A stretch of 60,763 nt of DNA from Actinomycetota bacterium (lineage in GTDB: Bacteria; Actinomycetota; Actinomycetes; Actinomycetales; Dermatophilaceae), in the NCBI GenBank assembly GCA_046731055.1, contig JBKPKI010000021.1, forward strand, positions 1 to 60,763, written 5' to 3'. Below the pieces are notes generated by a model. The model saw only the letters and a program-made list of their open reading frames with translations, made no database searches and was not told the origin of the DNA. This document shows positions 1,640-59,831 of the stretch, in pieces (positions within the stretch are counted from its first letter, which is position 1; each line of letters starts with the position of its first letter). A program made the translations under genes and the position numbers.

Positions 1640-2188
1640 ATGACGGCTCTAGCCACCCGCACGCAGCACGCCGACCTTCTCGACGCGGCGGTGACCTATC
1701 TCGTGAGCAACCCGCGCGCCTCCCTCGCCGACATCGCCGCCGCCGCGGGGATCGGTCGGACCACGCTGTTCAAGCGGTATGCGACCCGCGACGAGCTCGA
1801 GCACGCCGTCGCGATGCGCGCGGTCGGCGTCTGCCTCGAGGCTGCCCGGGGCGCCGACACCATGGCCGCGGACGGTGGGCTGCGCTCGCTGGTGACCGCG
1901 CTCGTCCCCGTCGGGCCACAGCTCAACTTCCTGTGGCGGACCCCGAGCCTGCAGAGCGACCAGGAGTTCTGCGCCGCATACAGCGAGGTTGACGCCGCGA
2001 TCGTCGACGTCCTCAGCCGGGCCAAGGCGGTGCGCGCGCTCGACGCGGCGCAGCCTGACTGGTGGCTCCGTCAGACGCTCGTCGCCTTGGTCTATGTGGC
2101 ATGGGAGTGCGTGGAGAGCGGTCGGCTAGCTCGGCTCGACGCGCCTCACCGCGTTCTCGACACGATGCTGAGGGGAGTGGCGGCATGA
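1640..2188 (+). CDS. TetR/AcrR family transcriptional regulator
   Basis: N-terminal HTH ASLADIAAAAGIGRTTLFKRYATRDEL; ATG 1640 lies 7 nt after TATTTT. Confidence 0.9.
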   Translation: MTALATRTQHADLLDAAVTYLVSNPRASLADIAAAAGIGRTTLFKRYATRDELEHAVAMRAVGVCLEAARGADTMAADGGLRSLVTALVPVGPQLNFLWRTPSLQSDQEFCAAYSEVDAAIVDVLSRAKAVRALDAAQPDWWLRQTLVALVYVAWECVESGRLARLDAPHRVLDTMLRGVAA

Positions 2189-3444
2189 CCACGGTCACGC
2201 AGCTCCGGACCGCGGCGAACTTCGCGGGCGGACTGTACAAAGAACGCTGGGACCGCTGGTATGCGGCCCGTTTCCGCGGCGACCAGCTGGCCCGCCTCAG
2301 CCTCCGTGAGGGGCGTCGCGACCCGTATGCGGTCTACGAGGACATGCGGGCCATCGGGCCGATGATCCCGACGCGCCTCGGCAACTGGGCCACGACGAGC
2401 TACGCCATCTGCAACCAGGTGCTGCGCAGCCGCCAGTTCGGGGTGCGGGAGGAGAGCGGGGCGGCACCAGCGCGGTCGCCGCAGGAGGAGTTCGACCTGT
2501 CGTTCCTCAGCCTCAACGAGCCGGACCACGCCCGGCTCCGTCGGGTGGCCGCGCCGGCGTTCAGCCCGAAGATGATGTCGGGATATGCGGCGACGATCGA
2601 CCAGACGGTGGGGGAGCTGCTCGATGCGGCCGACGCCAAGGGCACCTTCGACCTCGTGGCCGATCTCGCCGCACCGCTGCCGATTGCCGTCATCACGCGG
2701 ATGTTGGGCGTCGACGGCGGGGACATTCCCGCCTTCCAGCGTTACGGTGCGGCGCTCGGCAGCGCCCTCGACGGCGTCATGTCGCTCCCTCAGGCGCGCC
2801 GCGTCATGGAGGCAAACCGCGAGCTCGACATCCTCTTCGCGCGGCTGTTCGAGGAGCGAGAACGGGAGCCGCGGGACGACCTTCTCAGCGTCATCGTGGC
2901 CGAGAAGGGCAACGCGATCCGCCCGGAGGAGCTTCGGCCGATGTGTTCGCTGTTGCTCATCGCCGGCTTCGAGACGACGGTGAACCTCATCGGCAACGCG
3001 ACGCGCGCCCTGCTGACGCACCCCGAGCAGTGGGAGATGCTGCGCGCGGACCCCTCACTCGCGGCCGGTGCCATTGAGGAGGTTCTCCGGTGGGACCCAC
3101 CGGTGCAGGAGACCGCTCGGCTGTCGTTCCGCGAGACCGAGGTTGGTGGAGTGCCGGTGCACGTCAATCAGGCGGTGGTCCTGCTCCTGGCCGGCGCGAA
3201 CCGCGACCCGGAGATCTTCGTCGACCCGGCCCGGTTCGACATCACCCGGACGTCCGGCTCCGAGCACCTGTCCTTTTCCGGCGGCATCCACTACTGCCTC
3301 GGGGCTCCTCTCGCACGACTGGAGGCGAAGGTCGCGCTGACCGCACTCACGCAGCGGATGCCGCGGTTGCATCAGACGGGACGCGTGGTCATGCGGCCGT
3401 CCCGGTTGATCCGCGGGCCGCTGCACATGCCGGTCGCTGCCTGA
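2185..3444 (+). CDS. Cytochrome P450
   Basis: AGFETT I-helix, EEVLR (ExxR) and FSGGIHYCLG heme-binding motif; ATGA overlap with the TetR stop. Confidence 0.95.
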   Translation: MTTVTQLRTAANFAGGLYKERWDRWYAARFRGDQLARLSLREGRRDPYAVYEDMRAIGPMIPTRLGNWATTSYAICNQVLRSRQFGVREESGAAPARSPQEEFDLSFLSLNEPDHARLRRVAAPAFSPKMMSGYAATIDQTVGELLDAADAKGTFDLVADLAAPLPIAVITRMLGVDGGDIPAFQRYGAALGSALDGVMSLPQARRVMEANRELDILFARLFEEREREPRDDLLSVIVAEKGNAIRPEELRPMCSLLLIAGFETTVNLIGNATRALLTHPEQWEMLRADPSLAAGAIEEVLRWDPPVQETARLSFRETEVGGVPVHVNQAVVLLLAGANRDPEIFVDPARFDITRTSGSEHLSFSGGIHYCLGAPLARLEAKVALTALTQRMPRLHQTGRVVMRPSRLIRGPLHMPVAA

Positions 3445-3476
3445 GGACCGTCGGAGGGCGGGTCTAGGTTCGGTCC

Positions 3477-4016
3477 ATGAGGCAGGTGCCACAGAACTAC
3501 AGTCAGCAGTGGGCCGGCGGCCAGCGACCCGAGCTGCCCCAAACCGGCGACGAGCGCACGATGCTCACCACCTACCTCGACCACCACCGGGCGACATTCG
3601 AGCTCAAGTGCCGCGGCGTCGACCCGGCCCGGCTCAACGACCGGACCATGCCGCCGTCGACGCTCACCCTTCATGGGTTGCTGCGCCACCTCACCGGGGG
3701 AGAGCGGTGGTGGTTCCAGATCAACTTCGCCGGCGACCATGTTCCGTTGCTCTACTACTCCGACGACGACCCCGACCAGGACTTCGACCGCCTGGACGGC
3801 GACCTCGAGGAGGCCTGGGCGGCGTGGCGGCGCGAGTGCGAGCGGTCTCGCGACATCGTGGCGGCCCACCACCTCGACGACGAAGGAATTCGCGTCCGCG
3901 ACGGCGAGCCCATCTCGCTGCGCGGGGTGGTGCTCAAGATGATCGCCGAGTATGCCCGCCACAACGGCCACGCCGACCTGCTGCGGGAGGCGATCGACGG
4001 GGCGACCGGGGCCTGA
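3477..4016 (+). CDS. DinB/DUF664 family protein (putative mycothiol transferase)
   Basis: ERTMLTTYLDHHR, LHGLLRHL...ERWWF and EYARHNGHADLLREAIDG motifs. Confidence 0.85.
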   Translation: MRQVPQNYSQQWAGGQRPELPQTGDERTMLTTYLDHHRATFELKCRGVDPARLNDRTMPPSTLTLHGLLRHLTGGERWWFQINFAGDHVPLLYYSDDDPDQDFDRLDGDLEEAWAAWRRECERSRDIVAAHHLDDEGIRVRDGEPISLRGVVLKMIAEYARHNGHADLLREAIDGATGA

Positions 4017-4116
4017 GACGGCGTGGACCCACCGAGAGAGACGGTGGCCCCGGCTGGCGCAGACGGCTAGCGTCGCGGAATCGGGCCTTGCCTGGGCCCC
4101 GGCGAAGGAGAGGGTC

Positions 4117-4326
4117 ATGGCTGACCACGTGTACCGCGTGACGGAGGTCGTGGGGACGTCGAGTGAGAGTCTGGAAACGGCGATCCGGACGGGCATCGAC
4201 AAGGCGGCGGAGACGGTGCGCGGCCTCGATTGGTTCGAGGTCACCGAGATCCGCGGACACCTCGAGGACGGCGGGGTCGCACACTTCCAGGTGACGATGA
4301 AGCTCGGGTTCCGCGTCGGCGCTTAG
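4117..4326 (+). CDS. Dodecin (flavin-binding)
   Basis: 69 aa MADHVYRVTEVVGTS...LDWFEVTEIRGH...HFQVTMKLGF; AAGGAG RBS. Confidence 0.93.
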   Translation: MADHVYRVTEVVGTSSESLETAIRTGIDKAAETVRGLDWFEVTEIRGHLEDGGVAHFQVTMKLGFRVGA

Positions 4327-5072
4327 TTGATGAGCAGCGACAGCATGGTGGCGATCACGACGGTGTTGAGGATCCAGGCCATGACGCTCTGGAACGTGAC
4401 CATGCGCCGCATGGATGCCGAGGTCACCGTGGTGTCGGTCGTGCCGAACGTCACCGAGCACCCGGCCGCCAGGTAGACGTAGTCGGAGAAGACCGACTCT
4501 GCGGGACCCGCGAATGCCAGCCCACCCTCCTCGACGTCCTTGCGGGCGTAGTACAGGGCGAAGCTGAAGGTGATGATCGCGATACAGCTGAGCACGGTGA
4601 TCCCGGCCATGGTGAGCACGAGGACCGGGACGTCCTTGCGATTGACGACGGCGGTGACGACTGTGATGAACGCCCAAATGGCGATGCTGACCGGCCAAAC
4701 GATGCTGCCGCCGCCGGCGAGGAGCCAGCGCATCCACGCCGACCGCGGCAGTGGTGTCCCCAGGATGCGGCGAACCAGCTCGGCGTGGTCCGCCCTTCGG
4801 AAGGCCCGGGCGCCCAGCCACAGGTAGGCGATCGCGAATCCGACCCAGGCGATGAGGTTGGAGCCGTAGTCCTCCTCGAGGGCCCGTTGAGCCGGGGTTA
4901 GCTGCTTTCGAAACCCGAACTCCTGGTAGAGGCTCTGGAGGATAGCGAACAGCAGGCTGAAGAGGAGCCCCAAGCCGATCGCCGCCCAGAGCCGGAACAC
5001 GTCCGAGCACGACCGGGGGATCGGCGCCGGCCGCTTGTCTGGAGGCGGGAAGACGATGTACTTCTCAGGCAT
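4323..5072 (-). CDS. DUF1345-like membrane protein
   Basis: Several TM segments; C-terminal FSDYVYLA...TFGTTDTTVTSASMRRMVTFQSVMAWILNTVVIA; GAGGA upstream of ATG 5072. Confidence 0.75.
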   Translation of the reverse strand: MPEKYIVFPPPDKRPAPIPRSCSDVFRLWAAIGLGLLFSLLFAILQSLYQEFGFRKQLTPAQRALEEDYGSNLIAWVGFAIAYLWLGARAFRRADHAELVRRILGTPLPRSAWMRWLLAGGGSIVWPVSIAIWAFITVVTAVVNRKDVPVLVLTMAGITVLSCIAIITFSFALYYARKDVEEGGLAFAGPAESVFSDYVYLAAGCSVTFGTTDTTVTSASMRRMVTFQSVMAWILNTVVIATMLSLLIN

Positions 5073-5130
5073 GGCGTCCTCGGTGGGTGGGTAGCCGAAG
5101 CCATTGTCCTGCGTCCCCCGCTGTAACCGG

Positions 5131-5187
5131 CGAAAGGCCAACTTTGGTCGTTTTGGCGCCGTCATAACGACCAAACTTGGCCTTTCG
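5131..5187. repeat. Long palindrome (22-bp arms, 1 mismatch)
   Basis: CGAAAGGCCAACTTTGGTCGTT (5131-5152) / AACGACCAAACTTGGCCTTTCG (5166-5187). Confidence 0.85.
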
Positions 5188-5249
5188 ACAGCTGAAGCGC
5201 GGGTCGGCGTGGTCGGGCCTGCCCTCGACCGCGTGAAAGACTTGACGCC

Positions 5250-7097
<1,848 letters not shown>

Positions 7098-7128
7098 CCC
7101 TGTCGGCTCCGCCGCCTAGCCTGACCGG

Positions 7129-7971
7129 GTGCGCGAGCACTACACGCATACCGTCGGGCCGCCGCTGCGTCCGTACGTGACCCTCGCGGTCGGCTATCGG
7201 TATGCCGGTGCGCCTCCGGGCGTCCACATCGGCATGCCGTCGGGCACGCTGACGCTCGTCGTGCCGTTCGATGAGCCACTGCTCCTCAGCGGTGCCGGGC
7301 TCTCCCGGCGGACCCCGTTCGAGGGGGTGCTCGCCGGGCTGGCCACCGCTCCGACGCTGATCCACCACGAGGGACGCCAACACGGCGTGCAGCTCGGCCT
7401 CACTCCGGCCGGAGCCCGAGCCCTCTTCGGCCTCCCGGCCGCTGAGCTGGCCGAGCGGTCCGTCGAGCTCGAGGACGTCGTCGGGCGCGTCGCCCGGTCG
7501 CTTCGTGACGAGCTCCAGGAGTATGCGACGTGGCGGGAGCGGTTCGCCGCGGTGGAACGCGTCGTCCTCGAGCTGGTGCGCACGAACGACGTGGGCCGGG
7601 AAGCGGCGCCCGAGGTGAGGGAGGCCTGGCGGCTGATCCGCCGCGGTCGAGGATCGACTCCGGTCGCCGCGCTGGCCTCGGACGTGGGGTGGTCGACGCG
7701 CCACCTCGAGCACCGGTTCCGTGGCGAGTTCGGGATCACCCCGAAGTCCGCGGTTCGGTTGACCCGGTTCGAGCGGTCGGTCGAGGTCGCGCGCGACCCC
7801 CGACGGAGGCTCGCCGACGTCGCGGCCGAGTGCGGCTATGCCGACCAGGCGCACCTCGCCCGGGAGTGGCGAGAGCTGGCCGGGTTGCCGCCGTCCCGGT
7901 GGCGCGCGGAGGACGACCTCGCATTCGTCCAAGACGACCAAGCGGCTCGCTCGGCAGCATGGGGGACATGA
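7129..7971 (+). CDS. AraC family transcriptional regulator
   Basis: C-terminal GWSTRHLEHRF...GITPK and LADVAAECGYADQAHLAREWRELAGLPP. Confidence 0.9.
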   Translation: MREHYTHTVGPPLRPYVTLAVGYRYAGAPPGVHIGMPSGTLTLVVPFDEPLLLSGAGLSRRTPFEGVLAGLATAPTLIHHEGRQHGVQLGLTPAGARALFGLPAAELAERSVELEDVVGRVARSLRDELQEYATWRERFAAVERVVLELVRTNDVGREAAPEVREAWRLIRRGRGSTPVAALASDVGWSTRHLEHRFRGEFGITPKSAVRLTRFERSVEVARDPRRRLADVAAECGYADQAHLAREWRELAGLPPSRWRAEDDLAFVQDDQAARSAAWGT

Positions 7972-8366
7972 CAACACGCACTGACCACAACGTCTGGCCC
8001 GGGCTCAGCTATGACGACGCCCACGCCGCCCGCGGGTGGCTGGCGGCGCTCGGCTTCGAGGAAGGAATCGTCGTCGAGGGTGAGAGGCCGGGGGAGATCC
8101 AGCACAGCGAAATGCTCTGGCCGGGCGGCGGTCGCGTGATGGTGCACAGCCGCGGCAAGGCGGACGAGACCTTCACGACGCCGAGGGGGAGCGGAAACGT
8201 CTACGTGGTGTGCGACGACCCGGACGCGGTCTGGGGCAAGGCGCAGGCACTCGGTGCGACGGTGCTCCGACCGATGGAGGACACCGACTACGGCTCCCGC
8301 GGGTTCTCGATCGCCGACGCCGAGGGCAATGCCTGGTCGTTCGGGACCTACGCCGGCGAGGACTGA
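7968..8366 (+). CDS. VOC/glyoxalase family protein
   Basis: VWPGLSYDDAHAA...DTDYGSRGFSIADAEGNAWSFGTY; ATGA overlap with the AraC gene. Confidence 0.88.
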   Translation: MTTRTDHNVWPGLSYDDAHAARGWLAALGFEEGIVVEGERPGEIQHSEMLWPGGGRVMVHSRGKADETFTTPRGSGNVYVVCDDPDAVWGKAQALGATVLRPMEDTDYGSRGFSIADAEGNAWSFGTYAGED

Positions 8367-9355
8367 CCGGCGCCGCTCGGCGGCCAATCCGGGGGTACCT
8401 CCCGCTTGCGGGGCCGATCCTTCTGGAAATCGAGGAGCTTGGCCCGCAGGCGGTCGGTGTCCTCGGCGGTCCAGCCGTGCTGCTCCAGCCACGCCTCGGC
8501 GCCGCCCTCGCGGTCGAGAGCCCGGACGAGTAACCGCATGGTCTCGGCCTGCGGTTGCTGCTGGGCGACCGTCTTGCCGTCGAGGTTCGCCGCGTACGCC
8601 GGGTGTCGAGCGAGCCGCTCAAGGATGCGCGGGACCCGCTCGGCGGACGCCGCGTAGTCCGCGACGACTGCCTCGTGGGTGACCCCGGCCACCAGCAGGG
8701 CCAGCCCGACGATGGTGCCTGTCCGGTCCTTACCGGCCGCGCAGTGCACCACCACGGCGCCCTTCGCCTGTGCGATCGCCCTCAACGCGGCCACCACCGA
8801 GTCCGGACGCTGGGTGAGATACCCCAGGTAGTGCCCGGACCAGTAGGCGTCGTGCTGGCGGCGCTCCTCCGCCGAGCCCCGACTACGTCCGGTCTCGCCG
8901 TGGCGCCGCTTTTTCGGACGACGGACTCCGGCCGCCGTCCCGAACTTGCGGTCGCTCTCCCATGGCAGATTCCGTTCCCCGGGCGGAATGCCGGTCTCCT
9001 TGGTGTCCTCGGTGTAGAGCGTGTGGTGGTGCAGGCGCACGCCGCGCTCGGCGACCATGGGGCCGTCGCCCTCCTTGGCAACCTCGACGAACGTGCGCAG
9101 GTCGACGACGTCGGTCACTCCGAGGTCGTCCACGAGGTGACGGACCGACGCCGGCGCGAGCTCCTGGAGGTTGTCGGACCGGATGAGCCGACCCGCGACG
9201 ACGGACCGCCCGTCGGTCGTGGGAAGCCCGCCGACGTCACGCATGTTGTCGACGCCGTCGAGCTCGATCCAGCGCGGATCGTGGCTGAGGGCGACATCCA
9301 TCGCTGGGACTGGGGCCGGATCGTCGGCCGCCTGGGAAGCAGCGGTGGACGTCAC
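8348..9355 (-). CDS. Tyrosine-protein phosphatase (PtpB/Y_phosphatase3-like)
   Basis: NMRDVGG, VVDLR and P-loop VHCAAGKDRTG. Confidence 0.9.
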   Translation of the reverse strand: MTSTAASQAADDPAPVPAMDVALSHDPRWIELDGVDNMRDVGGLPTTDGRSVVAGRLIRSDNLQELAPASVRHLVDDLGVTDVVDLRTFVEVAKEGDGPMVAERGVRLHHHTLYTEDTKETGIPPGERNLPWESDRKFGTAAGVRRPKKRRHGETGRSRGSAEERRQHDAYWSGHYLGYLTQRPDSVVAALRAIAQAKGAVVVHCAAGKDRTGTIVGLALLVAGVTHEAVVADYAASAERVPRILERLARHPAYAANLDGKTVAQQQPQAETMRLLVRALDREGGAEAWLEQHGWTAEDTDRLRAKLLDFQKDRPRKREVPPDWPPSGAGQSSPA

Positions 9356-9379
9356 GCCACGACCCTAACGGGCACCGGT

Positions 9380-9414
9380 GAGGGCCCCGGGAAGTATGAG
9401 TTCCCGGGGCCCTC
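9380..9414. terminator. GC-rich stem-loop, probable intrinsic terminator
   Basis: GAGGGCCCCGGGAA-N7-TTCCCGGGGCCCTC perfect 14-bp stem; no U-tract. Confidence 0.6.
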
Positions 9415-9551
9415 TGCGACGGGCCGGAGCACGCCGCTCGATGTCCGAGGTTTGACCCTCGCACAGACCCGAAGTTCCGCGAATCTCGTTCTCCCGAAAG
9501 AGAATTGGACCCCTCAGATCTTCGGTCCGCCTCCGGCGAACCGGCGGCGTG
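9380..9551 (-). ncRNA. Candidate structured non-coding RNA or cis-regulatory leader (unassigned family)
   Basis: The minus strand has three UUCG-capped hairpins, G-U pairs that favour this strand, a closing helix CACGCCGC/GCGGCGUG, an upstream TTGCGG-N18-TAGAAA promoter-like pair and a terminal hairpin. No credible ORF. Confidence 0.55.
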
Positions 9552-9627
9552 GGGATATTTCTAGGCCTTCGCGAACCGGTCCCGCAAGGGCTTCATCCGA
9601 ACTTTTTCGGACCGATTTGGGTCGCTC

Positions 9628-9651
9628 CGGCGTGTCGCGCTCGACACGCCG
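9628..9651. promoter_or_regulatory. Palindrome CGGCGTGTCG-N4-CGACACGCCG (GACAC-containing; possible WhiA-type site)
   Basis: Perfect 10-bp inverted repeat upstream of the candidate ncRNA promoter. GACAC is the known WhiA core; the assignment is inference. Confidence 0.4.
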
Positions 9652-9889
9652 ACCGACGTCCTGGACCTGGTCTCCCGCGAGCGCGGCGGATGGCGGTCTG
9701 CGCCCGGTTCGCACCGATCGCGCTCGCCGCAGGGCAGCAAGCCTGGCTGGTGCGCGTGCCCTGATCCCTGGTCGCCATCCCCTGCTCGCCGCCCTCGCCA
9801 ACGTCCCGGCGAGCACCTGGGGCTCGCGCACCCCAGCGCGGTACGGGGTCACGACGCATACCGGTTGAGGGCGCTGGGAGACTGGAGCA

Positions 9890-11104: not shown

Positions 11105-11143
11105 TCGACAGGGCCCGAAGGAGCCGGCGCACCGGAGGACGCG

Positions 11144-11542
11144 TCAGTGCAGGATGCGGATCTGGAACGGGTAGTTGTAGACCTCGCCCCTGCTCGCCTT
11201 GACCGCCCCGATGATGTGGAAGACGAAGATCAGGATGTTCGCGATGAAGAAGAGGACGAGAGCGACGGGGATGAGCACGATCGTGAACACGCAGATCCAC
11301 GCCACGATGTTCATGATCCAGAGGCCGACGTTGAAGTTGAACGAGCCGGCCGCCGCCTGACGGACCAGCGGGCTGCGGTCCTTGTAGATGAACCAGATGA
11401 TCAGTGGGCCGGCGAAGCTGAGCCATCCGGCCGTGACAATCGCAGCGATGATCGCCGACAGGTGGGCGAAGATGCTCGCGGTCTTCTCCTCACCCGTGGC
11501 GGGCAGGTGGCCTGAGGTGGGGCCGTAAGGCTGGTTGGTCAT
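11144..11542 (-). CDS. DUF4870 domain membrane protein
   Basis: EEKTASIFAHLS...GPLIIWFIYKDRSPLVRQAA...GAVKASRGEVYNYPF; GGGGAG RBS before ATG 11542. Confidence 0.85.
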   Translation of the reverse strand: MTNQPYGPTSGHLPATGEEKTASIFAHLSAIIAAIVTAGWLSFAGPLIIWFIYKDRSPLVRQAAAGSFNFNVGLWIMNIVAWICVFTIVLIPVALVLFFIANILIFVFHIIGAVKASRGEVYNYPFQIRILH

Positions 11543-49104: not shown

Positions 49105-49110
49105 AGAGGA

Positions 49111-50725: not shown

Positions 50726-50759
50726 GGCGCCGCCCGGGTCGACCCCGTACCGTGTGCCG

Positions 50760-51482: not shown

Positions 51483-51538
51483 CTTCGCCCGTGTGGGTGA
51501 CCGCCGGCTCGGTCCGCGAGCCGACCTAGACTCGCCTC

Positions 51539-53464
51539 GTGGCGGGACGGTTCGTGGCCGAGGATGTGGCCACGCTCAAGGAGCGGACCTCGCTCGAGGA
51601 CGTCGTCCGCGAGCATGTGACGCTGCGCCGCTCGGGCAGCAGTCTGCTCGGGCTATGCCCGTTCCACGACGAGAAGACACCGTCCTTCAACGTCAATCCC
51701 ACGACGAACCACTACTTCTGCTTCGGCTGTCAAGAGGGTGGCGACGCCATCTCCTTCGTCCAGAAGGTCGAGCACCTCACCTTCACCGAGGCGGTGGAGC
51801 GGCTCGCCCAACGCGTCGGCATGGAGGTGCGCCACGAGGACGGCGGCACCCGGGAGCGCGACGACGGAGGCGTTGGTCGCCGAGCTCGGCTCGTCGAGGC
51901 GCACCGGGTCGCTCAGGAGTTCTACGCCGACCAGCTCCTCACCACCCAGAGCGCGCGGGCGGGGCGCGACTTCATGCGGGAGCGGGGGTTCGACAGCGCG
52001 GCGGCGACACTGTTCGGCGTCGGGTATGCGCCGCGCGGCGGCGAGGATCTCGTCCGTCACCTGCGGGCGAAGGGGTTCCACGACGACGAGCTCGTCGCGG
52101 GCGGTCTGGCCGGTCGCGGGTCCCGTGGGCTCTACGACCGGTTTCGCGGGCGCCTCGTGTGGCCCATCCGTGACATCACCGGCGCCTGTGTGGGGTTCGG
52201 AGCGCGCCGGCTCTACGACGACGACCGGATCGAGGCCAAGTACCTCAACACGTCCGAGACGGCGATCTACAAGAAGTCCACCGTGCTTTACGGGCTGGAT
52301 GCGGCGAAGAAGGCGATCGTCCGTGACCGGACTGCGGTGGTGGTGGAGGGGTACACCGACGTCATGGCCTGCCACCTCTCCGGTGTGGAGACGGCCATCG
52401 CGACCTGCGGGACGGCATTCGGGGTGGATCACATCAAGGTGCTGCGGCGGATCATGCGCGACGAGGCCGATCTCGCGCCGTCGAAGGTGATCTTCACCTT
52501 CGACGGCGACGCAGCCGGGCAGAACGCCGCGATGAAGGCCTTTCGCGAGGACCAGCGTTGGGCCTCCCAGTCGTTCGTGGCGGTCGCCCGCTCGGGGATG
52601 GACCCCTGTGAGCTGCGCCAGGCGGAGGGTCCGGACGCGGTCCGCGCGCTCGTCGAGGACGCCGTCCCGATGTTCGAGTTCGCGGTGCGGACGACCATCG
52701 CGCGGTATGACCTCGAGACCGCGGAGGGCCGGATCCAGGCGATGCGCGCCGCGGCCCCGATCGTCGCCGGCATCCGTGACCAGGCGCTGCGGCCGGAGTA
52801 TGCGCGAGTCCTGGCCGGCCTCCTCGGCGTCGAGGTCGAACCGGTGAGCGCCGAGGTGACCCGCGCTGGCAAAACCGGCAACCGGCCCGCATACGAGACC
52901 CGCCGTCATCCCGAGCCCACCGACGCGCAGCTGGAGCCGACCGCCGACGAGCTGCGCGACGCGCTGCCGCGCCCCGATCTGCGCGACCCGGTCGTCCTCG
53001 CCGAACGTCAGCTCTTGCAGGTGGTCCTCCAGCTCCCCGGCCTGCTCGAACCCGCGGACCTGGACCGCGTCGACGGGAGCTCGTTCAGCGCGCCGGCGCA
53101 CCGGGCGGTATGGGATGCGGTCGTCACCGCCGGTCGACCCGACGGTTCGACGGCGGCGTGGGCCGACGCGGTCGCGGCGGCGGCCCCGGCTGCGGTCCAC
53201 CCTCTCGTCGCCGAGCTGGCCGTCGCTCCGTTGCCCGTGACGCCGGACCGCGCCACGGGTCTCCCGAGCCGCCGGTATGCGGCGTCGCTGGTGGCGCGAC
53301 TGCGCGAGGTCGGGCTCACCCGCCAGGTGGCGGACACCCTCAGCCAGCTGCGCCGGCTCGACAACGCCCCGGAGCCGGACGTCGCCGTGTCGCGGGAGGT
53401 CGGCCTGAGGCTGCAGGCGTTGCAGCGCGAGCTCGCGGACCTCCGTGACAAGCAGGACGCCTGA
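51539..53464 (+). CDS. dnaG: DNA primase
   Basis: CPFH...CFGC zinc finger, DRFRGR, KYLN, VVEGYTDV and FDGDAAG Toprim. Confidence 0.98.
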   Translation: MAGRFVAEDVATLKERTSLEDVVREHVTLRRSGSSLLGLCPFHDEKTPSFNVNPTTNHYFCFGCQEGGDAISFVQKVEHLTFTEAVERLAQRVGMEVRHEDGGTRERDDGGVGRRARLVEAHRVAQEFYADQLLTTQSARAGRDFMRERGFDSAAATLFGVGYAPRGGEDLVRHLRAKGFHDDELVAGGLAGRGSRGLYDRFRGRLVWPIRDITGACVGFGARRLYDDDRIEAKYLNTSETAIYKKSTVLYGLDAAKKAIVRDRTAVVVEGYTDVMACHLSGVETAIATCGTAFGVDHIKVLRRIMRDEADLAPSKVIFTFDGDAAGQNAAMKAFREDQRWASQSFVAVARSGMDPCELRQAEGPDAVRALVEDAVPMFEFAVRTTIARYDLETAEGRIQAMRAAAPIVAGIRDQALRPEYARVLAGLLGVEVEPVSAEVTRAGKTGNRPAYETRRHPEPTDAQLEPTADELRDALPRPDLRDPVVLAERQLLQVVLQLPGLLEPADLDRVDGSSFSAPAHRAVWDAVVTAGRPDGSTAAWADAVAAAAPAAVHPLVAELAVAPLPVTPDRATGLPSRRYAASLVARLREVGLTRQVADTLSQLRRLDNAPEPDVAVSREVGLRLQALQRELADLRDKQDA

Positions 53465-54015
53465 TGCGGCTGTCGCTGAGGGGACGGCGGTCCGACGACC
53501 TTCCGGCGGACGTCGTCGCGGCGTTGCGCGATGCCGACGGCGGCAAGGTGCTGTCCGCAGCGCCGCACGCCGACTCCCGCGCCTGGCTGGTGGCCAGCGT
53601 CTACGAGCTCGCGCTCGTCGACCCTGGGCGATCCGCCGGGGAGGCCCTGCTGTGGTCCCGCCCGTGGCACGAGGTGGACGCCGGGTCGTGGAGTCGGGAG
53701 GCGTCCACCTTGACGGTGACCTGGGCGGACCGCACCCGGCCAGCGCAATGGCACCTCGACGATGGGATGCGCGAGCGGGTCTTCCTCCAGACGCTGCGCG
53801 AGCGCGTCCAGGCCAGTGTGGTGCTCGGGGAGGAACTGTCGCTCAGTGGCCGCGGGACGGGTCGGGCGGTGATCCGCCAGAATCTGCGGACCGGTGAGCT
53901 GCTGCAACAGGTAGTTCTCGGGCGGGGCGTCCGGGAGGATGACGACGAGGTGGCCGCCGTGGTGGCCCGGACGCTGGGCTGGCTGCGCGAGCAGGTGGGG
54001 ATGCCGCAGCCCTGA
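53464..54015 (+). CDS. Hypothetical protein
   Basis: TGATG coupling to dnaG; plausible composition, PWHEVDAGSW and LRERVQASVV. Confidence 0.7.
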   Translation: MRLSLRGRRSDDLPADVVAALRDADGGKVLSAAPHADSRAWLVASVYELALVDPGRSAGEALLWSRPWHEVDAGSWSREASTLTVTWADRTRPAQWHLDDGMRERVFLQTLRERVQASVVLGEELSLSGRGTGRAVIRQNLRTGELLQQVVLGRGVREDDDEVAAVVARTLGWLREQVGMPQP

Positions 54016-54112
54016 CGGCGTGGAGTGCTTCGCCCATCGCCCGCGGAGGCGCATCGCAATGCGCGCACCTTCGTCACCGTGCGCGCACGTTCGCACATCC
54101 CGCACATGTTCC

Positions 54113-54150
54113 GGACATCGCGGACAGGATCGAACCTGCCCGCGATGTCC
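54113..54150. repeat. Palindrome (16-bp arms, 1 mismatch)
   Basis: GGACATCGCGGACAGG-N6-CCTGCCCGCGATGTCC. Confidence 0.7.
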
Positions 54151-54264
54151 CGGACCTGCTCGCAATCGGGGAGGCAAGGACCAGGTTCCACTCTGTCCGG
54201 GCGATTCCGCGATCGGGCGGCCGAGTTGCTAACCTTTCCCGCGCGCGCCGCCTCGCGCACGCAG

Positions 54265-54340
54265 TCCCCTATAGCTCAATTGGCAGAGCAGCTGACTGTT
54301 AATCAGCAGGTTCTTGGTTCGAGTCCAAGTGGGGGAGCCA
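54265..54340 (+). tRNA. tRNA-Asn (GTT)
   Basis: 76-nt cloverleaf: D-arm GCTCAATTGGCAGAGC, anticodon arm GCTGA-CTGTTAA-TCAGC, T-loop TTCGAGT and encoded CCA. Confidence 0.97.
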
Positions 54341-54368
54341 CCACGGTCTGCCCTGCGCCGGGCGGACG

Positions 54369-55322
54369 TCAGCGGCGACCGGCTACGGGCTCCCCGAGGT
54401 CCTCCCCGGGAGCCTCCGCCTCGGACAGCTCTACGGGCGCTTCGACGACGAGCGTCTCCGTGCCTCCGCCACCGGCACCGATCGTGGTACGGCCGCGCTG
54501 CCGGAGGCGCCGCTCGACGTACGCGGCAAGGGTCGTCAACGAGTAGTTGATGACGATGTAGATGGCGGCGATGACGATCATCGCCGGGACGATGTTGCCC
54601 CACGTGGATCCGATGCGCTGGTAGTTCGTCAGCAGCTCGTTGTAGGTGATGATCTGCCCTAGCGCGGTGTCCTTGAGGACCACGACGAGCTGCCCGACCA
54701 GCGCCGGGAGCATGGCAGTGACGGCCTGGGGGAGCTGGATCGAGCGGAGTGTCTGCCCCCGCGTCAATCCGATCGAGAGGCCCGCCTCCGCCTGACCCCG
54801 GGGCAGGCTCCCGACGCCCGACCGCAGCAGCTCGGCGACGACCGACCCGTTGTAGAGCGTGAGCCCGGTGACCACGGCCGCGAGCGGGTTGACGTCTGAG
54901 ACGAAGATGTTGTTGTACGAGTAGAAGTAGAACGCGCCCAGCATCATGACGAGCACCGGCACCGAGCGGAAGAACTCGATGACGACGGTGCAGGCCCATC
55001 GGATCGCCGCAACGTGCGACATCCGGCCGGTGCCGAAGAGGAAGCCGAAGATGCCCGCAAGGACGATCGAGATGGCCGCCGCCTTGAGGGTGTTGGCCAG
55101 GCCGGGCAGCAGGTAGTCGATCCAGACGTTGGCGTCGATGTCGTTGACCTCGATGCCGATGAACATGGCCCACTTGTCGGGGGCGAGGTTGCCGTGGATG
55201 CCGAGCTGGTAGAGGACGAAGGCGAGGAACCCAGCGACCAGGAGGCCACCGACGATGGCGGCGATGCGGTACCGGGCCCGCGCCTTGGGGCCCGGCGCGT
55301 CGAAGAGGACTGAAGCGCTCAT
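54369..55322 (-). CDS. gluD: Glutamate ABC transporter permease
   Basis: SVLFDAPGPKAR, EFFRSVP, GQAEAGLSIGL and LKDTALG. Confidence 0.88.
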   Translation of the reverse strand: MSASVLFDAPGPKARARYRIAAIVGGLLVAGFLAFVLYQLGIHGNLAPDKWAMFIGIEVNDIDANVWIDYLLPGLANTLKAAAISIVLAGIFGFLFGTGRMSHVAAIRWACTVVIEFFRSVPVLVMMLGAFYFYSYNNIFVSDVNPLAAVVTGLTLYNGSVVAELLRSGVGSLPRGQAEAGLSIGLTRGQTLRSIQLPQAVTAMLPALVGQLVVVLKDTALGQIITYNELLTNYQRIGSTWGNIVPAMIVIAAIYIVINYSLTTLAAYVERRLRQRGRTTIGAGGGGTETLVVEAPVELSEAEAPGEDLGEPVAGRR

Positions 55323-55984
55323 CGTCTTACCGCCAGCCGGCTGGAGAGGTAGCTCGTCAGCAAGCCCATCGGCAGCGTGATGATCACGAACCCGATGGCC
55401 ACGATGAGGACGATGGGCAACGCCAGGTCCGACCGGAACTCGGTCATCTCACGCTGGAGACCTGCGATCTCAGCTACCCCGATGGCGGTGGCGACGGTGG
55501 TGTTCTTCGTCAGCGCAATGAGGGTGTTGCCGAGAGGGGTGATCGCACCGCGAAAGGCCTGCGGAAGCATGACCTGCTCCAGGCTCTGTCCGAAGGTCAG
55601 GCCGACGGAACGAGCGGCCTCCGCCTGGCCCGCGGGCACCGTGTTCACGCCGCTCCTCAGCGCCTCGCACACGAAGGCGGCGTGGTAGATGGAGAGTCCG
55701 ATGATCGACCAGATGATGTTGTTGCGCACCAGGTCGTCGCTCAGGCTGAAGCCGAGGTTGACGATCATCACGATGTTGCAGGCGATGATGATCAGCGTCA
55801 GCGGCGTGTTGCGGACGATGTTGACGTAGAGGGCGCCGACCCGCTGCAGCAGCGGTACCGGCGACACCCGCAGGATTGCCATCACCGTGCCGATGACCAG
55901 TGAGCCGATGGCGGAGAAAAATGTCAGTAGCAGGGTCATCCCGAACGCCGCAAAGACGTTGTACTGGGCCAGCAGCTCACCCAT
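55319..55984 (-). CDS. gluC: Glutamate ABC transporter permease
   Basis: RVSPVP, RNTPLT, GQAEAARSVGL and KNTTVA. Confidence 0.88.
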   Translation of the reverse strand: MGELLAQYNVFAAFGMTLLLTFFSAIGSLVIGTVMAILRVSPVPLLQRVGALYVNIVRNTPLTLIIIACNIVMIVNLGFSLSDDLVRNNIIWSIIGLSIYHAAFVCEALRSGVNTVPAGQAEAARSVGLTFGQSLEQVMLPQAFRGAITPLGNTLIALTKNTTVATAIGVAEIAGLQREMTEFRSDLALPIVLIVAIGFVIITLPMGLLTSYLSSRLAVRR

Positions 55985-56043
55985 GAGGCTCTCGGTCCTC
56001 CCGTCGGGGCACGTCTGTCGAGGTCAGGTCATGACCAGCCGAG

Positions 56044-56078
56044 GGTATGCCGCCCGCCCGCTGGGCGAGCGGCATACC
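56044..56078. terminator. Intergenic stem-loop between gluB and gluC built from inverted GTATGC motifs
   Basis: GGTATGCCGC...GCGGCATACC; possible mRNA stabiliser or partial terminator. Confidence 0.55.
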
Positions 56079-56092
56079 GGTATGCGTGTTCG

Positions 56093-56968
56093 TCAGCCGG
56101 TGGCTCCGCCGGAGGAGCCGCACGCCGCCGGAGTGGGCGGATTCCCCGCGCCCGGCTTGAAGCCGGACGGTCCGAGGTTCTTTTCGACGGCCTTCTGCCA
56201 CTCGCCCGAGCTGATCCACTTCTTGATCGCGTCCGTGACCTTCTGGCACAGCGCGGTGTCGCCCTTGGGAAGCCCCACGCCGTAGTTCTCCGTTGAGAAC
56301 GTCTGGCCGACCACCTTGAGCTGGCCCTTGTTGGCGGCCTGGGCGGCATACCCGGCAAGGATCGTGTTGTCGGTGGTCAGCGCATCGACGCTCTTGGCCT
56401 TCAGGGCGTCGACGCAGAGGGTGTAGGTGTTGTACTCCTGCAGCTGGATCTCCGCGCCGTAGTTCTTCTGCACGTTGGCGGCTGAGGTCGAACCCTTGAC
56501 CGAGCACAGTTTCTTGCCCTTGAGCGACCCGGGACCCGTGATCGACGTGTCGTCGGCGCGGATCAGCAGGTCCTGGCCGGCGATGAAGTACGGCCCGGCG
56601 AAGTCGACGTCCTTTTTGCGCGCGTCCGTGATGGAGTACGTGCCGACGATGTACTTGACCTGGCCGCTCTTGAGCAGCGTCTCGCGCTGTGCGGACACCG
56701 CCTCGACGAAGCTCGGCGTGTAGTTCAGCTCCTTGGCGATGTAGTTCGCCAGGTCCACGTCGAATCCCGAGTAGGTCGATCCCTCCTTGAGGCCCATGCC
56801 GGGCTGGTCGAACTTGATGCCGACCTTCACGGCCTCGCCACCGCCTCCTCCGGTGGCGCCGCCGCCCCCGCCGGCGCCGGACCCTGCGGGCGTGCCGCTG
56901 CCACAGGCCGCGAGGCCGACGGCTGCCAGCGCGGCCACCGTGGCGGCATTGATCCGTCCGAGCTTCAT
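56093..56968 (-). CDS. gluB: Glutamate ABC transporter substrate-binding lipoprotein
   Basis: LAAC lipobox, GIKFDQPG, TYSITDARK, FAGPY and TTDNTIL. Confidence 0.9.
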   Translation of the reverse strand: MKLGRINAATVAALAAVGLAACGSGTPAGSGAGGGGGATGGGGGEAVKVGIKFDQPGMGLKEGSTYSGFDVDLANYIAKELNYTPSFVEAVSAQRETLLKSGQVKYIVGTYSITDARKKDVDFAGPYFIAGQDLLIRADDTSITGPGSLKGKKLCSVKGSTSAANVQKNYGAEIQLQEYNTYTLCVDALKAKSVDALTTDNTILAGYAAQAANKGQLKVVGQTFSTENYGVGLPKGDTALCQKVTDAIKKWISSGEWQKAVEKNLGPSGFKPGAGNPPTPAACGSSGGATG

Positions 56969-57044
56969 CCTGGTTGTTCCTCCCTGTTGTGCCCTGGTGC
57001 GTGGGCTGGATCTGGGTGAGGTCAGTGCCTACTAACCGTTCCGG

Positions 57045-57848
57045 TCAGTGCGTGAGGATCTTCCCGAGGAAGTCCTTCGCGCGCTCCGACTTGGGGTTGC
57101 TGAAGAAGTCCTGGGGCGCCGCGTCCTCGACGATCTGCCCGTCGGACATGAAGACGACCCGGTCGGCCGCGCGGCGAGCGAATCCCATCTCGTGGGTGAT
57201 GACGATCATCGTCATGCCCGACTTGGCGAGCTGGATCATCACGTCGAGGACCTCGTTGATCATCTCCGGGTCGAGGGCTGACGTCGGCTCGTCGAAGAGC
57301 ATCACCTTGGGATCCATGGCCAGCGAGCGGGCGATCGCGACCCGCTGCTGCTGGCCGCCCGAAAGCTGTGCCGGGTACTTCCCGGCCTGCTGGCCGACGC
57401 CGACGCGCTCGAGCAGCTCCTTGGCTCGCTGCTCCGCCGCCGCCTTCTTCTCGTTGCGGACCTTCATCGGGCCGAGGGTGACGTTCTGAAGAATCGTCTT
57501 GTGGGCGAAGAGGTTGAAGCTCTGGAAGACCATGCCGACGTCGGCGCGCAGCTTGGCCAGCTCCTTGCCCTCCTCGGGCAGCGGCTGGCCGTCGATGGTG
57601 ATCGAGCCCGACTCGTAGGTCTCAAGCCGGTTGATCGTGCGGCACAGCGTCGACTTGCCGGACCCGGACGGCCCCAGAACGACGACGACCTCACCCTTGC
57701 CCACGGTGAGGTCGATGTCTTGGAGGACGTGCAGGTCGCCGAAGTGCTTGTTGACGCCCTTGATCTGGACCATCGGCTCGCCGCCCTTGGGCGGAGGGGG
57801 TGTGGACGAATCGGAGTCCTGCCGCGAGTCGGCCGGTGCGTCGCTCAT
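57045..57848 (-). CDS. gluA: Glutamate/polar amino acid ABC transporter ATP-binding protein
   Basis: [22 protein letters not shown] and [12 protein letters not shown]. Confidence 0.92.
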
Positions 57849-57995
57849 TGGCGCAACCTACCGTTCGACACCTTCCCCCGGGGTCACCGCGCAGCCATTT
57901 GCCGCCGAATTGTGAAGAAAGCATGAGAGCCATCTGCGCGTATGCCCTCAAGGAGGCCCGAGGTTGAGCCCGCGGGGAGCGGGTAGTGGTCAGCC

Positions 57996-58502
57996 ATGAC
58001 TGCAGATACCCGCACCGGCCCGGACCCGCAGACCCTCGACACCGTCCGGTCGATCATGAAGGACGTCCGGACGTGCATGTTCGTCACGACCACCGACGAC
58101 GGCAGCCTGCACGCCGCACCCATGACCACACAGGAGGCCGAGTTCGACGGCGACGCCTGGTTTGTGGCCAGCTCCGAGTCCGAGACCGTCCGCAATCTCG
58201 CGTCCCGATCGCGCGTCAACGTGTCGTATGCGGGGTCGAACGCGTGGCTCTCGTTGACCGGCACGGCGTCGGTCGTCGAGGACGCCGAGAAGAAAAAGGA
58301 GCTGTGGAATCCCTTCACGGAGGCGTGGTTCCCGGAGGGTGAGCACGACCCCTCGGTCGTCGTCGTCAAGGTCTCGGGGCAGTCTGCGCACTACTGGGAC
58401 AGCCCCGGTCGGATAGCCATGACGCTCGACATGGTCAAGGCGCGCGTCACCGGTAATCCGCCGAAGTCCGGTGACACCGGCAGCGTGGATCTGCAGAACT
58501 GA
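57996..58502 (+). CDS. Pyridoxamine 5'-phosphate oxidase-like general stress protein
   Basis: CMFVT...LHAAPM, DAWF, VNVSY, WLSLTGTA, ELWNP...AWFPEG and YWD. Confidence 0.85.
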   Translation: MTADTRTGPDPQTLDTVRSIMKDVRTCMFVTTTDDGSLHAAPMTTQEAEFDGDAWFVASSESETVRNLASRSRVNVSYAGSNAWLSLTGTASVVEDAEKKKELWNPFTEAWFPEGEHDPSVVVVKVSGQSAHYWDSPGRIAMTLDMVKARVTGNPPKSGDTGSVDLQN

Positions 58503-58524
58503 CACCGCGAGGAGGGCAAGCTTC

Positions 58525-59088
58525 ATGACAGACGAGACCGCCACCACATTGCAGGGCAAGACGATCGCCTTCGGTGTCGCCAACGAGGGCATCGAGCAGG
58601 TCGAGCTCGAGGAACCCTGGAAGGCGGTCAAGGCCGCCGGCGGGACGCCGGCACTGATTTCGATGGAGGCCGGCAAGGCCCAGGCGTTCAACCACCTCGA
58701 CAAAGCCGACGTGTTCGACGTTGATACGACGTTCGCGGAAGCCTCCGTGTCCGACTACGACGGGCTGGTCCTGCCCGGCGGGGTAGCCAACCCGGACACG
58801 CTGCGGACTGACGAGAACGCGGTTCGGTTCGTCCAGGCCTTCGTCGCAGCCGGCAAGCCGGTGGCGGCGATCTGCCACGCGCCGTGGACGCTCGTCGAGG
58901 CGGGCGTCCTGGAGGGACGACGGCTGACGTCCTGGCCGAGCCTCCAGACCGACATCCGCAACGCGGGCGCGACCTGGGTCGACGAGGAGGTCGTTCGAGA
59001 TGGCTGGCTGGTCACGAGCCGCAAGCCGGACGACCTGCCGGCGTTCAACCGCGCCCTGGTGAAGCTCTTCGCCGGCTCGGCCTCCTGA
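58525..59088 (+). CDS. PfpI/DJ-1 family (type 1 glutamine amidotransferase-like) protein
   Basis: GIEQVEL, LPGGVANPD, AICHAPW and TSRKPDDLPAF. Confidence 0.93.
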   Translation: MTDETATTLQGKTIAFGVANEGIEQVELEEPWKAVKAAGGTPALISMEAGKAQAFNHLDKADVFDVDTTFAEASVSDYDGLVLPGGVANPDTLRTDENAVRFVQAFVAAGKPVAAICHAPWTLVEAGVLEGRRLTSWPSLQTDIRNAGATWVDEEVVRDGWLVTSRKPDDLPAFNRALVKLFAGSAS

Positions 59089-59198
59089 CCTCGCTTCCCG
59101 CCTCCGAACGCCTGTTGCTGTCGATTCCTCGCCCGCGAGCCGGCGCGAAGTCGACAACAACGTGAGCCTGGAAGCGGGGTGAGGCGCAGGATGGTGCC

Positions 59199-59831
59199 GT
59201 GGCGGACGCATACACCTTCGACCCGGTCGCCCTCGGCGACGTGGAATGCGACGCTTGGGTGCACTACTACCGCCACGAGTGGGTGCCATTCCTGCGGGAC
59301 TCGCTCGGGCTCGTGTCCGAGGGCTTCGGCCTGGGGCCGCGGCGAACGCTGGTCGGAGCCTGGCTGGTCCTCCGGGCCAACCAGGTCTGGGCGCCGTACC
59401 CGGACAACGACCCGGACGCGGCCCGCGAGTACATGCGGCGCTTCTACGCGCTGGTCGTGGCGGACGGGGGCCTCGACCTGGATCCCGTCGAGGCCGCCCG
59501 CCGCGAAGTGCAGTGGTGGCACATCCATCGAGCCCACCAGCGCGAGGACCAGGTCACGGAGACGGAGCTCGTCGACGCGGTGGCGCACCTCTACGGCTAC
59601 CTCTACCTCGTTCCCGAGGAGACCGTGCGCGAGGCGGCGCGCTTGCGGGTCGCCGCGATGGCGCTCTCCGACATGTGGGTGGATGCGGGCTGCTCCCTGA
59701 CCGATCACACGCTCGTGGAGGAGCGTCGCGCGCTCATCGCCTCGTACTCCGCCCTGCGCGCGGCGATCGACGAGGGCGGCCTGGCAGCAACCCGGCCCGT
59801 GTCGACCTCCCGCCACAGTCGCCGAACCTGA
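59199..59831 (+). CDS. Hypothetical protein
   Basis: 210-aa ORF with GC3-rich codons; no family recognised. Confidence 0.7.
   Translation: MADAYTFDPVALGDVECDAWVHYYRHEWVPFLRDSLGLVSEGFGLGPRRTLVGAWLVLRANQVWAPYPDNDPDAAREYMRRFYALVVADGGLDLDPVEAARREVQWWHIHRAHQREDQVTETELVDAVAHLYGYLYLVPEETVREAARLRVAAMALSDMWVDAGCSLTDHTLVEERRALIASYSALRAAIDEGGLAATRPVSTSRHSRRT

Follow-up and report, generated by a model that had tools for sequence, protein, structure and literature searches.

What is the function of a six-letter word that recurs in both orientations, about once per kilobase, along a bacterial chromosome? The question is raised by a 60,763-nucleotide stretch from an actinobacterium of the family Dermatophilaceae (contig JBKPKI010000021.1, or C21; the whole of this stretch is referred to here as the window), in which the word GTATGC, read as GCATAC on the opposite strand, is found throughout. 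We focused on this word in the window, in its source genome (G000; 2.60 Mb in 265 contigs, 57% complete, 69.7% GC), and in related genomes. GTATGC(G) is a conserved, nonpolarized, orientation-specific DNA site that is spaced separately along each of the two strands. It is a real, conserved, and apparently undescribed chromosome-wide signal, working in the manner of Chi or of an uptake sequence.

A sequence-only reading of the window had counted about 70 copies, some 40 on the forward and 30 on the reverse strand, and had put the mononucleotide expectation for the 7-mer GTATGCS at about 12. The count is exactly 70 (40 and 30), the expectation is 12.4, and all 11 coordinates quoted in that reading agree with our gene calls, as do the frames and intergenic placements given for them. 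The copies are located as follows.

1777..58231, + strand, GTATGC, 40 copies, first 20 starts: 1777, 2259, 2325, 3950, 5717, 6683, 7200, 7521, 10075, 10831, 13615, 15371, 17209, 18995, 22210, 24215, 26324, 27511, 27986, 30504
+ strand, GTATGC, last 20 starts: 30730, 32590, 35778, 38222, 39765, 41149, 42778, 43990, 44931, 46424, 48170, 50017, 50861, 52024, 52798, 53275, 56045, 56080, 57940, 58226
1976..59213, - strand, GTATGC, 30 copies, first G at: 1981, 5504, 7151, 9861, 10220, 12555, 15141, 15983, 17311, 20921, 23518, 24068, 25512, 29350, 31561, 33979, 34172, 35652, 37937, 38282, 42062, 43143, 46172, 47407, 49476, 50308, 52894, 56077, 56351, 59213
56072..56085, both orientations, back-to-back inverted pair GCATAC-CG-GTATGC (rare)

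In the window, the next base is G in 55 copies, C in 15, and A or T in none, so that the form GTATGCS proposed in the reading holds there; it does not hold for the whole of G000, where the 2,658 copies in 2.6 Mb are followed by G (1,948), C (608), A (89), or T (13). The motif word is GTATGC(G>C), not strictly GTATGCS. One-base variants had also been described as rare, which is true of CTATGC (7 copies in the window), GTATGA (3), and GTATGG (3) but not of GGATGC (40), GTCTGC (35), GTGTGC (30), GTAGGC (22), and GTACGC (18). Close inverted pairs (opposite orientations, <30 bp apart) show only a mild excess genome-wide. Separately, we observed that TATGCT is almost missing from G000 (27 copies versus 465 expected); the scarcity of GTATGCT may reflect avoidance of the −10-like hexamer TANNNT. 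Several A-N5-T heptamers (AGCGGCT, AGGCGCT, and AACCGCT) are over-represented 1.6- to 1.8-fold at maximal Markov order.

The proposal that GTATGC exceeds chance was borne out. Observed/expected (O/E) ratios in G000 are 7.3, 5.6, and 3.7 at Markov orders 1, 2, and 3, where it is the top word, and under a maximal-order model it reaches a z of 34, the top words being TATGC, TATGCG, and GTATGC; TATGC is the top 5-mer (z = 62.6). Using genes from a simple in-house caller (2,152 of 2,470 calls, with 5′ ends trimmed), we found that GTATGC is 1.9- to 7.9-fold more frequent than in synonymous-codon shuffles, whichever of the six frames is considered (observed/shuffled counts of 102/13, 162/85, and 786/177 in the sense frames and of 617/102, 83/13, and 203/48 in the antisense frames). 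In the context G-TAY-GCG, TAT makes up 641 of 850 Tyr codons, compared with 1,880 of 13,628 overall. The density is 0.97 per kb inside genes and 1.38 per kb outside; it is reduced in the lowest and highest octiles of GC content at third codon positions (0.74 and 0.79) and is only 0.48 per kb in lysine-rich genes, suggesting dilution by foreign DNA together with a cost in highly expressed genes.

The sites are also kept during evolution. Among 147 genes with orthologues in genome G011 (83% amino acid identity), 84 of 126 G000 sites are identical, while five one-off control words are conserved at 16 to 39% in the same comparison. At motif sites TAT is retained in 48 of 62 cases, versus 10 of 54 elsewhere, and GCA in 19 of 33, versus 14 of 166 elsewhere. 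Orthologues in the motif-poor genome G015 contain none of 158 G000 sites. The word leaves a trace in the proteome as well: all nine dipeptides that it can encode are more common in G000 than in G015 orthologues (1,028 versus 828), in comparison with 837 versus 823 for eight control dipeptides. The one-off words GTACGC and GCATGC are depleted in G000 to 0.55 to 0.66 of shuffles, and GTACGC is the commonest one-off state at orthologous sites of relatives (14 in G011 and 26 in G015).

A feature beyond the earlier reading is that orientation is strongly nonrandom. Neighboring copies alternate strand in 53 of 69 pairs in the window and in 1,477 cases versus 923 in G000. By this measure no hexamer out of 1,270 scores higher than GTATGC (z = 11.1), the best unrelated word reaching 2.7, and the control words GGATGC (50.4%) and GTCTGC (47.8%) carry no signal; GTACGC reaches 54.4%, coinciding with an excess of pairs closer than 100 bp, which its overlap with its own complement would lead one to expect. 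Same-strand pairs are depleted to an O/E of 0.62 to 0.73 up to 1 kb, 0.85 at 1 to 1.5 kb, and 0.97 at 1.5 to 2 kb, whereas opposite-strand pairs remain at 0.94 to 1.31 throughout. Along one strand, gaps have a mean of ∼1.67 kb and a median of ∼1.43 kb, with a coefficient of variation of 0.77 versus 0.97 ± 0.03.

Counts on the two strands are correspondingly balanced. Per-contig counts in G000 are too even (χ2 of 56.8 on 126 degrees of freedom), and the contig balance is unrelated to GC skew (rho = 0.13), so that the absence of replication polarity noted in the earlier reading stands. Replichore polarity, or a role of the KOPS (FtsK-orienting polar sequence) type, is rejected on the contig counts, on the 135/136 sites over ten 40-kb blocks of G096, where no block is polarized, and on the 630 versus 578 sites found on G-rich and C-rich contig strands. 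Whole-genome forward and reverse counts are likewise underdispersed in 92 motif-rich genomes (χ2 of 57.9 on 92 degrees of freedom, P = 0.002), whereas those of 62 motif-poor genomes are not (64.8 on 62). The spacing signature is repeated in G011 (z = 4.8), in G096 (z = 4.9), and in ten named Dermatophilaceae loci, and was not found in 480 kb of G015. An explanation by transcription was also rejected: gene direction is unrelated to motif orientation (rho = 0.05; 1,050 sense versus 903 antisense), and alternation persists within single genes (524 versus 301).

To describe the surroundings of the sites, we computed base composition at fourfold-degenerate positions after removal of codon and context effects. 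The motif strand favors G/T at +6 to +12, C at +13 to +21, G at +22 to +29, C at +30 to +38, and G at +39 to +45, with best periods of about 17 to 20 nt and little upstream structure beyond −8. A G-rich tract continues 3′ of the site to about +300. On the 5′ side, the motif strand keeps more C and fewer A/T, this side being both C-richer and GC-richer. Both zones are averages over the genome; their positions at one site are as follows.

15377..15416, + strand, example of the 3′ footprint zone, +6 to +45 from the first G of site 15371 (rsmE); an average over ∼2,600 sites, not visible in one copy
13871..15370, + strand, example of the 5′ zone, ∼1.5 kb upstream of site 15371 on the motif strand; a genome-wide average, not a single-site feature

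None of 250 control hexamers matches the 3′-versus-5′ skew (z of −6.8, 8.5 at 40 to 160 nt, and 10.2 at 160 to 1,000 nt) or the GC contrast at 160 to 1,000 nt (z = −7.1), while 20 of 250 match the GC contrast at 40 to 160 nt. The footprint is alike on G-rich and C-rich contig strands, as far as the 46% of fourfold sites that could be classified go. A codon or protein artifact is rejected, given the six-frame excess over shuffles, the presence of the 3′ footprint at 482 intergenic sites, and its absence from the G015 positions orthologous to G000 sites. A hairpin or ssi-type structure is rejected too, in the absence of complementary covariation (best hairpin-center z, 2.6).

The 5′ zone has a defined reach. 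Among the 240,879 of 427,262 fourfold sites usable for an analysis of distance to the nearest site, strand composition is flat as long as the next same-strand site on the 3′ side lies within ∼1.5 kb; beyond that, C is lost (−0.016 and −0.024; z of −4.2 and −4.7) and A is gained (z = 5.3), as are T and G. With distance from the previous site there is no A/T rise, only a step at 300 nt. The range over which composition is held equals the range of same-strand exclusion. For sites shared by G000 and G011 (59 genes), the 600 bases nearest the word differ less at synonymous positions on the 5′ side (divergence, 0.422) than on the 3′ side (0.457); the bootstrap confidence interval of the difference is 0.015 to 0.055, and for six control words it spans 0. 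In other Dermatophilaceae (1.26 Mb, 1,047 sites), four short-range statistics exceed those of all 200 controls.

The view taken in the earlier reading, of a frame-independent signal at the DNA level, is supported, and the signal is lineage restricted. Among 24 genomes of the same genus, 20 contain at least ∼500 GTATGCS per Mb; the density is ∼270 to 300 in G006 and G017, 125 in G014, and 14 in G015 (G008 and G017 are unpublished and were counted in this tally alone); all 16 genomes from other families have fewer than ∼190. A family-wide draw of 160 genomes comprised 92 motif-rich ones (38 genera; 279 to 1,748 per Mb), 62 poor ones (29 genera), and 6 intermediates. Three dialects are seen, GTATGCG, GTATGCCG, and GGATGCC(G) in Microbacterium. 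G000 and G011 prefer GTATGCG, and named relatives mostly GTATGCC(G). The Microbacterium sister word occurs ∼1.4 times per kb, with the same kind of strand exclusion and flank: two genomes hold 3,358/3,362 and 3,515/3,451 copies of GGATGCS, versus 316/340 and 431/408 for reversed-pattern controls, and in Microbacterium G202, GGATGCC (284/284) is at the top of 791 and 1,218 heptamers for the spacing statistic (z of 3.4 to 3.6), with a shorter exclusion range. A G block at +8 to +13, a C block at +13 to +22, and the C-rich 5′ side are shared.

Relative to the reversed pattern, which is an imperfect control of range, GKATGCCG is prominent among 150 genomes of the order only in the family of the window and in family f7, which we infer to be Microbacteriaceae. 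In f7, 7 of 10 genomes reach 7 to 22 times the control, two are weak, and G594 lacks the word; the remaining 131 genomes of the order stay at or below ∼3.5 times. Phylum-wide (300 genomes, with a background that includes nine unpublished ones), only G081 and G497 are prominent (∼7 times), the others being at ∼4 times or less. A quick AdnA tree built from 30 genomes requires at least 5 changes to explain its 6 motif-poor members, and the trait is therefore labile: the motif has been repeatedly gained or lost within the family. No replacement motif was found in the 480 kb of G015 (best z, 2.8). Some motif-poor genomes or loci (G072, G103, G049, and L079) show elevated one-off words, namely GTACGC (33 and 29 per 20 kb), GGACGC (57), and CGTACG in a Streptomyces locus, which are possibly further dialects. 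We found no description of the GTATGC motif or of the Microbacterium GGATGCC in a literature search whose coverage mostly excludes subscription journals and REBASE; the supplement of PMC8022716 on over-represented octamers of species, which might contain GTATGC or GGATGCC words, lies outside this negative.

Which gene product might read the word was assessed from the presence of chosen families, mostly in small panels and not proteome-wide. Co-occurring genes had been suggested as a check; the panels of methyltransferase, competence, and repair families were examined accordingly, and none of the families tested covaries with motif richness. Among recognized families, no methyltransferase is common to the motif-rich genomes: G016 and G168, both rich and 98 to 99% complete, lack PF00145, PF02086, PF02384, and PF07669 (C5, D12, N6_Mtase, and Eco57I); PF01555 (N6_N4) is not over the cutoff in G011 or G096; C5 methylases are missing from many rich genomes that are 97 to 99% complete; and a pattern search for methylase motifs in G000 returned no DNA methylase. 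ComEC, DprA, and three ATPases of the Tad/type II secretion type are present regardless of motif richness (5 of 5 genomes in each test), and so is NucS (5 of 5); comEA and comEC were not found in the 57%-complete assembly of G000. UvrD-family helicases are near-universal in the panel, and Ku (56 of 58 genomes), single-stranded DNA-binding protein (58 of 58), and Y-family polymerases (58 of 58) do not covary either. The TIGR03817 helicase occurs in 65 of 80 genomes and is missing from all f7 and both Microbacterium genomes. AdnAB-type proteins are encoded in G000.

Some observations on these genes stand apart from the reader question. Second AdnAB-like copies are divergent (38 to 40% identity) in G011 (G011:C2:3012507-3023113) and G102 (C78), and G124 (C1) has a near-equal duplicate. 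ComEC matches end near query residue 620 in L045, L048, L070, and several Arthrobacter loci, suggesting that the C-terminal domain was lost in these lineages. The recA gene of G000 (L193:181-3615; G000:C68:19480-22914) encodes 1,144 amino acids with intein and LAGLIDADG domains, apparently two inteins by Pfam, and the viral contigs L429 and L430 contain a similarly long RecA-like match.

To account for the data, a process must read a single strand, be directional, serve ∼1.5 kb 5′ of the site, and be in equal demand on the two strands everywhere. We are highly confident that some orientation-specific DNA-processing machine reads GTATGC. Chances are about even that the word constitutes an unrecognized chromosome-wide signaling layer of two actinobacterial families, a per-strand ruler whose directional sites, ∼1.7 kb apart, set where repair, recombination, or re-priming starts. 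More tentatively, and with somewhat less than even confidence, we propose that GTATGC is a nonpolarized, Chi-like site that controls break resection and recombination, with AdnAB as its probable candidate reader. A Chi-like end-processing site fits all four requirements, while context mutation, methylase bias, a nucleoid protein, and priming restricted to the lagging strand each fail one or more of them.

According to this proposal, the word would be read by a protein, and a machine moving 3′ to 5′ along the motif strand would approach it from the 3′ side. The candidate is the AdnAB helicase-nuclease, acting at a broken or incoming DNA end. At GTATGC it may stop or switch, so that the DNA on the 5′ side is handed to recombinational repair; the 3′ flank would be the strand already inside the enzyme, with recombination falling 5′. 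Both orientations would be needed equally, as the ends of two-ended breaks and linear donor fragments face each way, and little would be gained from a further site on the same strand less than one tract length away, which could produce the spacing. AdnB is described as tracking 3′ to 5′ and pumping the strand through the motor-like domain of AdnA into the AdnB nuclease, a geometry that would place contacts on the 3′ side, and mycobacterial AdnAB resection averages about 37 kb (PMC13000450), so that a stop signal would be useful. Unpolarized or weakly polarized Chi sites, candidate and validated, are reported for Vibrio and Haemophilus influenzae (PMC8022716). Since all 80 genomes examined encode AdnA, whether rich or poor in the motif, motif-poor lineages would have lost recognition or selection, not the AdnAB gene.

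Several points weigh against the Chi-like proposal. The universal presence of AdnA gives no direct link between the motif and AdnAB, and no AdnA column separates the 24 non-poor from the 6 poor genomes beyond label permutation (best, 0.67; 95th percentile, 0.75); RecC, found in 27 of 80 genomes of both classes, does not covary. When two sites lie close together on one strand, neither is the stronger. The contrasts at 300 to 1,200 nt are unremarkable in the pooled 1.26 Mb of other Dermatophilaceae (24 and 53 of 200 controls as extreme). In G024, alternation is weak (hexamer z of 2.3 to 2.4) once 3 of 10 blocks with low GC are excluded (129 versus 119 with them). The 45-nt periodic flank resembles the extended consensus of uptake signal sequences (USS) more than any Chi flank known to us, and Pasteurellaceae uptake sequences also exclude same-strand neighbors, though only below 400 bp. 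Finally, Escherichia coli Chi is polarized on the leading strand (PMC8022716), which GTATGC is not, and the accessible part of PMC13000450 describes no sequence control of AdnAB. As for G024 itself, its single 6.7-Mb contig (C1) has blocks of 34 to 49% GC at 4.8 to 6.2 Mb in a 69% GC genome, likely a contamination or concatenation.

A DNA uptake signal similar to USS or to the DNA uptake sequences (DUS) of Neisseria is possible, if doubtful. Here ComEA/ComEC or a Tad minor pilin would bind the word with its 3′ flank and import the motif strand 3′ end first, and sites would spread by uptake drive, with the 5′ side recombining more. Uptake sequences (PMC2817400) are matched in density (about 1 per kb), in the equal use of both orientations, in even spacing, in the existence of dialects, and in the higher frequency of the encoded peptides; USS have a one-sided extended consensus (PMC3458573) and show short-range same-strand exclusion, and the competence genes are present in all rich genomes tested, although the poor ones have them as well. 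For a direct comparison, we retained 39 of 119 metagenome loci of the Pasteurellaceae type (606 kb) after filters for length, USS density, and redundancy. USS singles alternate in only 143 of 274 cases, their exclusion is over by ∼400 bp, and flanking tracts of G/C skew are missing (raw counts, of lower power), whereas G000 treated in the same way gives 1,362 versus 879 and exclusion to 1.5 kb. Orientation-independent USS uptake has moreover been reported (PMC1939737), what marks the GTATGC flank is a strand preference for G versus C that recurs every ∼17 to 19 nt and not a series of helically phased T-tracts, inverted pairs are few, and competence in these actinobacterial families is not established in the literature covered. 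An observation from the control loci themselves (L310 to L384) is that USS singles avoid same-strand neighbors at 60 to 200 bp (3 versus 17 opposite pairs), of which we know of no description.

A strand-entry site for replication-coupled repair is, in our judgment, unlikely. A nick or primer at the word on each new strand would allow 3′-to-5′ excision to correct ∼1.5 kb on the 5′ side, while Pol I, being distributive, would remake the first 45 to 300 nt on the 3′ side; the 5′ plateau to ∼1.5 kb and the lower 5′ divergence fit such a repair tract, the damped periodic 3′ pattern could be the footprint of polymerase cycles, and both strands would be tiled separately without polarity. Methyl-directed repair in E. 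coli falls off near 1 kb (PMC4390886), and the absence of MutS from Actinobacteria (PMC6159521) makes a separate strand cue conceivable. There is, however, no shared methylase to mark the old strand, the divergence difference is small (0.035), NucS does not distinguish rich from poor genomes, and mycobacterial NucS repair is described as short-patch (PMC11551767); pure Okazaki priming would predict a polarity that neither the equal footprints nor the G096 counts show. The remaining two explanations, which had been raised in part in the sequence-only reading, lost ground. A site for a nucleoid-organizing or chromosome-translocating protein would agree with even spacing and conservation, as argued for HIP1 (PMC5861425), yet an orientation-blind organizer predicts spacing across both strands instead of separate strand tiling, a KOPS-type cue predicts polarity, and the one-sided composition tracts are left unexplained; we regard it as very improbable. 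Least credible of all is neutral, context-dependent mutation or methylation, by deamination of GTACGC or GCATGC or by a HIP1-type methylase or repair bias. It is consistent with the depletion of these two words and with GTACGC as the commonest one-off state, and it is largely refuted: the word is built via changes at several of its positions and in every one of the six frames (GTA-TGC, GCA-TAC, and xGC-ATA among them), its sites are conserved, C5 methylases are lacking in many rich genomes, and local mutation cannot yield strand-specific spacing on the kilobase scale.

Highly iterated signals such as Chi, USS/DUS, and HIP1 are known from few lineages, and none was found described for these actinobacteria. 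GTATGC comes with a testable anatomy (word, orientation, 45-nt flank, and a working range of ∼1.5 kb) and with natural controls in its dialects and motif-poor close relatives. If our interpretation is true, AdnAB would gain its first sequence control element, or else the word would be a methylation-free cue for strand discrimination and re-priming, and strand-specific spacing would suffice to detect such rulers in any genome. The same-strand-exclusion statistic, which is independent of composition, can be used to screen other phyla for sites of this kind. The finding bears on the limits of long AdnAB resection, on strand-directed repair without MutS, and on sequence-specific DNA uptake in monoderms; in practical terms, Microbacterium and wastewater Dermatophilaceae could become easier to transform and to modify by recombineering, and the word provides a marker for foreign DNA.

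The genes of the window form an ordinary core region (lepA, hemW, hrcA, dnaJ, rsmE, era, leuA, recO, glyS, and dnaG), and an RNA-family search of it returned a single tRNA and nothing else. The closest LepA relatives (∼89 to 91% identity), in a scan of 2 of the 64 parts of the named genomes, are from Dermatophilaceae, Oryzihumus, Terrabacter, and Pedococcus. Positions 33171 to 34565, between a dihydrolipoamide-dehydrogenase-like gene and fur, are ∼1.5 kb of atypical DNA with an open reading frame of 464 amino acids that has no NCBIfam or Pfam match and is not called by the coding model. A 183-amino-acid gene of no known family (53464 to 54015) abuts the dnaG stop and is conserved in G011 (79%) and G015 (63%), and the gene upstream of recO is, by its Atlas name, a generic actinobacterial regulator-like protein.

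Compared with known systems, GTATGC shares with Chi (RecBCD GCTGGTGG; Firmicutes AddAB Chi) a short, nonpalindromic, over-represented, and orientation-specific word with lineage dialects that is rarer in atypical DNA. Chi effects lie 5′ of the word on its own strand, and so do those of GTATGC. Orientation dependence, a criterion for Chi, appears in statistical form only, as same-strand exclusion and a one-sided footprint, which still leaves the earlier argument that a weak strand bias speaks against a Chi-type signal without support. Unlike Chi, GTATGC is not polarized with replication, occurs ∼1 time per kb, tiles each strand evenly, has a 45-nt periodic 3′ flank, and does not covary with RecC; a Chi-type control of AdnAB is not described in the part of PMC13000450 seen. 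With USS and DUS, the resemblance seen in the earlier reading is upheld in density, dialects, and proteome effect, and extends to equal orientations, even spacing, a one-sided extended consensus, and short-range same-strand exclusion. GTATGC differs in an exclusion that reaches 1.5 kb and not <0.4 kb, in its directional G/C-skew and divergence tracts, in a shorter core with few terminator-like inverted pairs, and in a monoderm host. Like the cyanobacterial HIP1 (GCGATCGC), it is hyperabundant, conserved inside and between genes, and subject to lineage-specific replacements and losses; unlike HIP1, it is nonpalindromic and strand specific, with no associated methyltransferase family found. GTATGC has neither the polarity of Chi nor the palindrome and methylase of HIP1. 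With Dam GATC in methyl-directed mismatch repair it has in common an implied working range of ∼1 to 1.5 kb, whereas GTATGC is nonpalindromic and one-directional, without a shared methylase, in a host that has NucS and not MutS/MutH.

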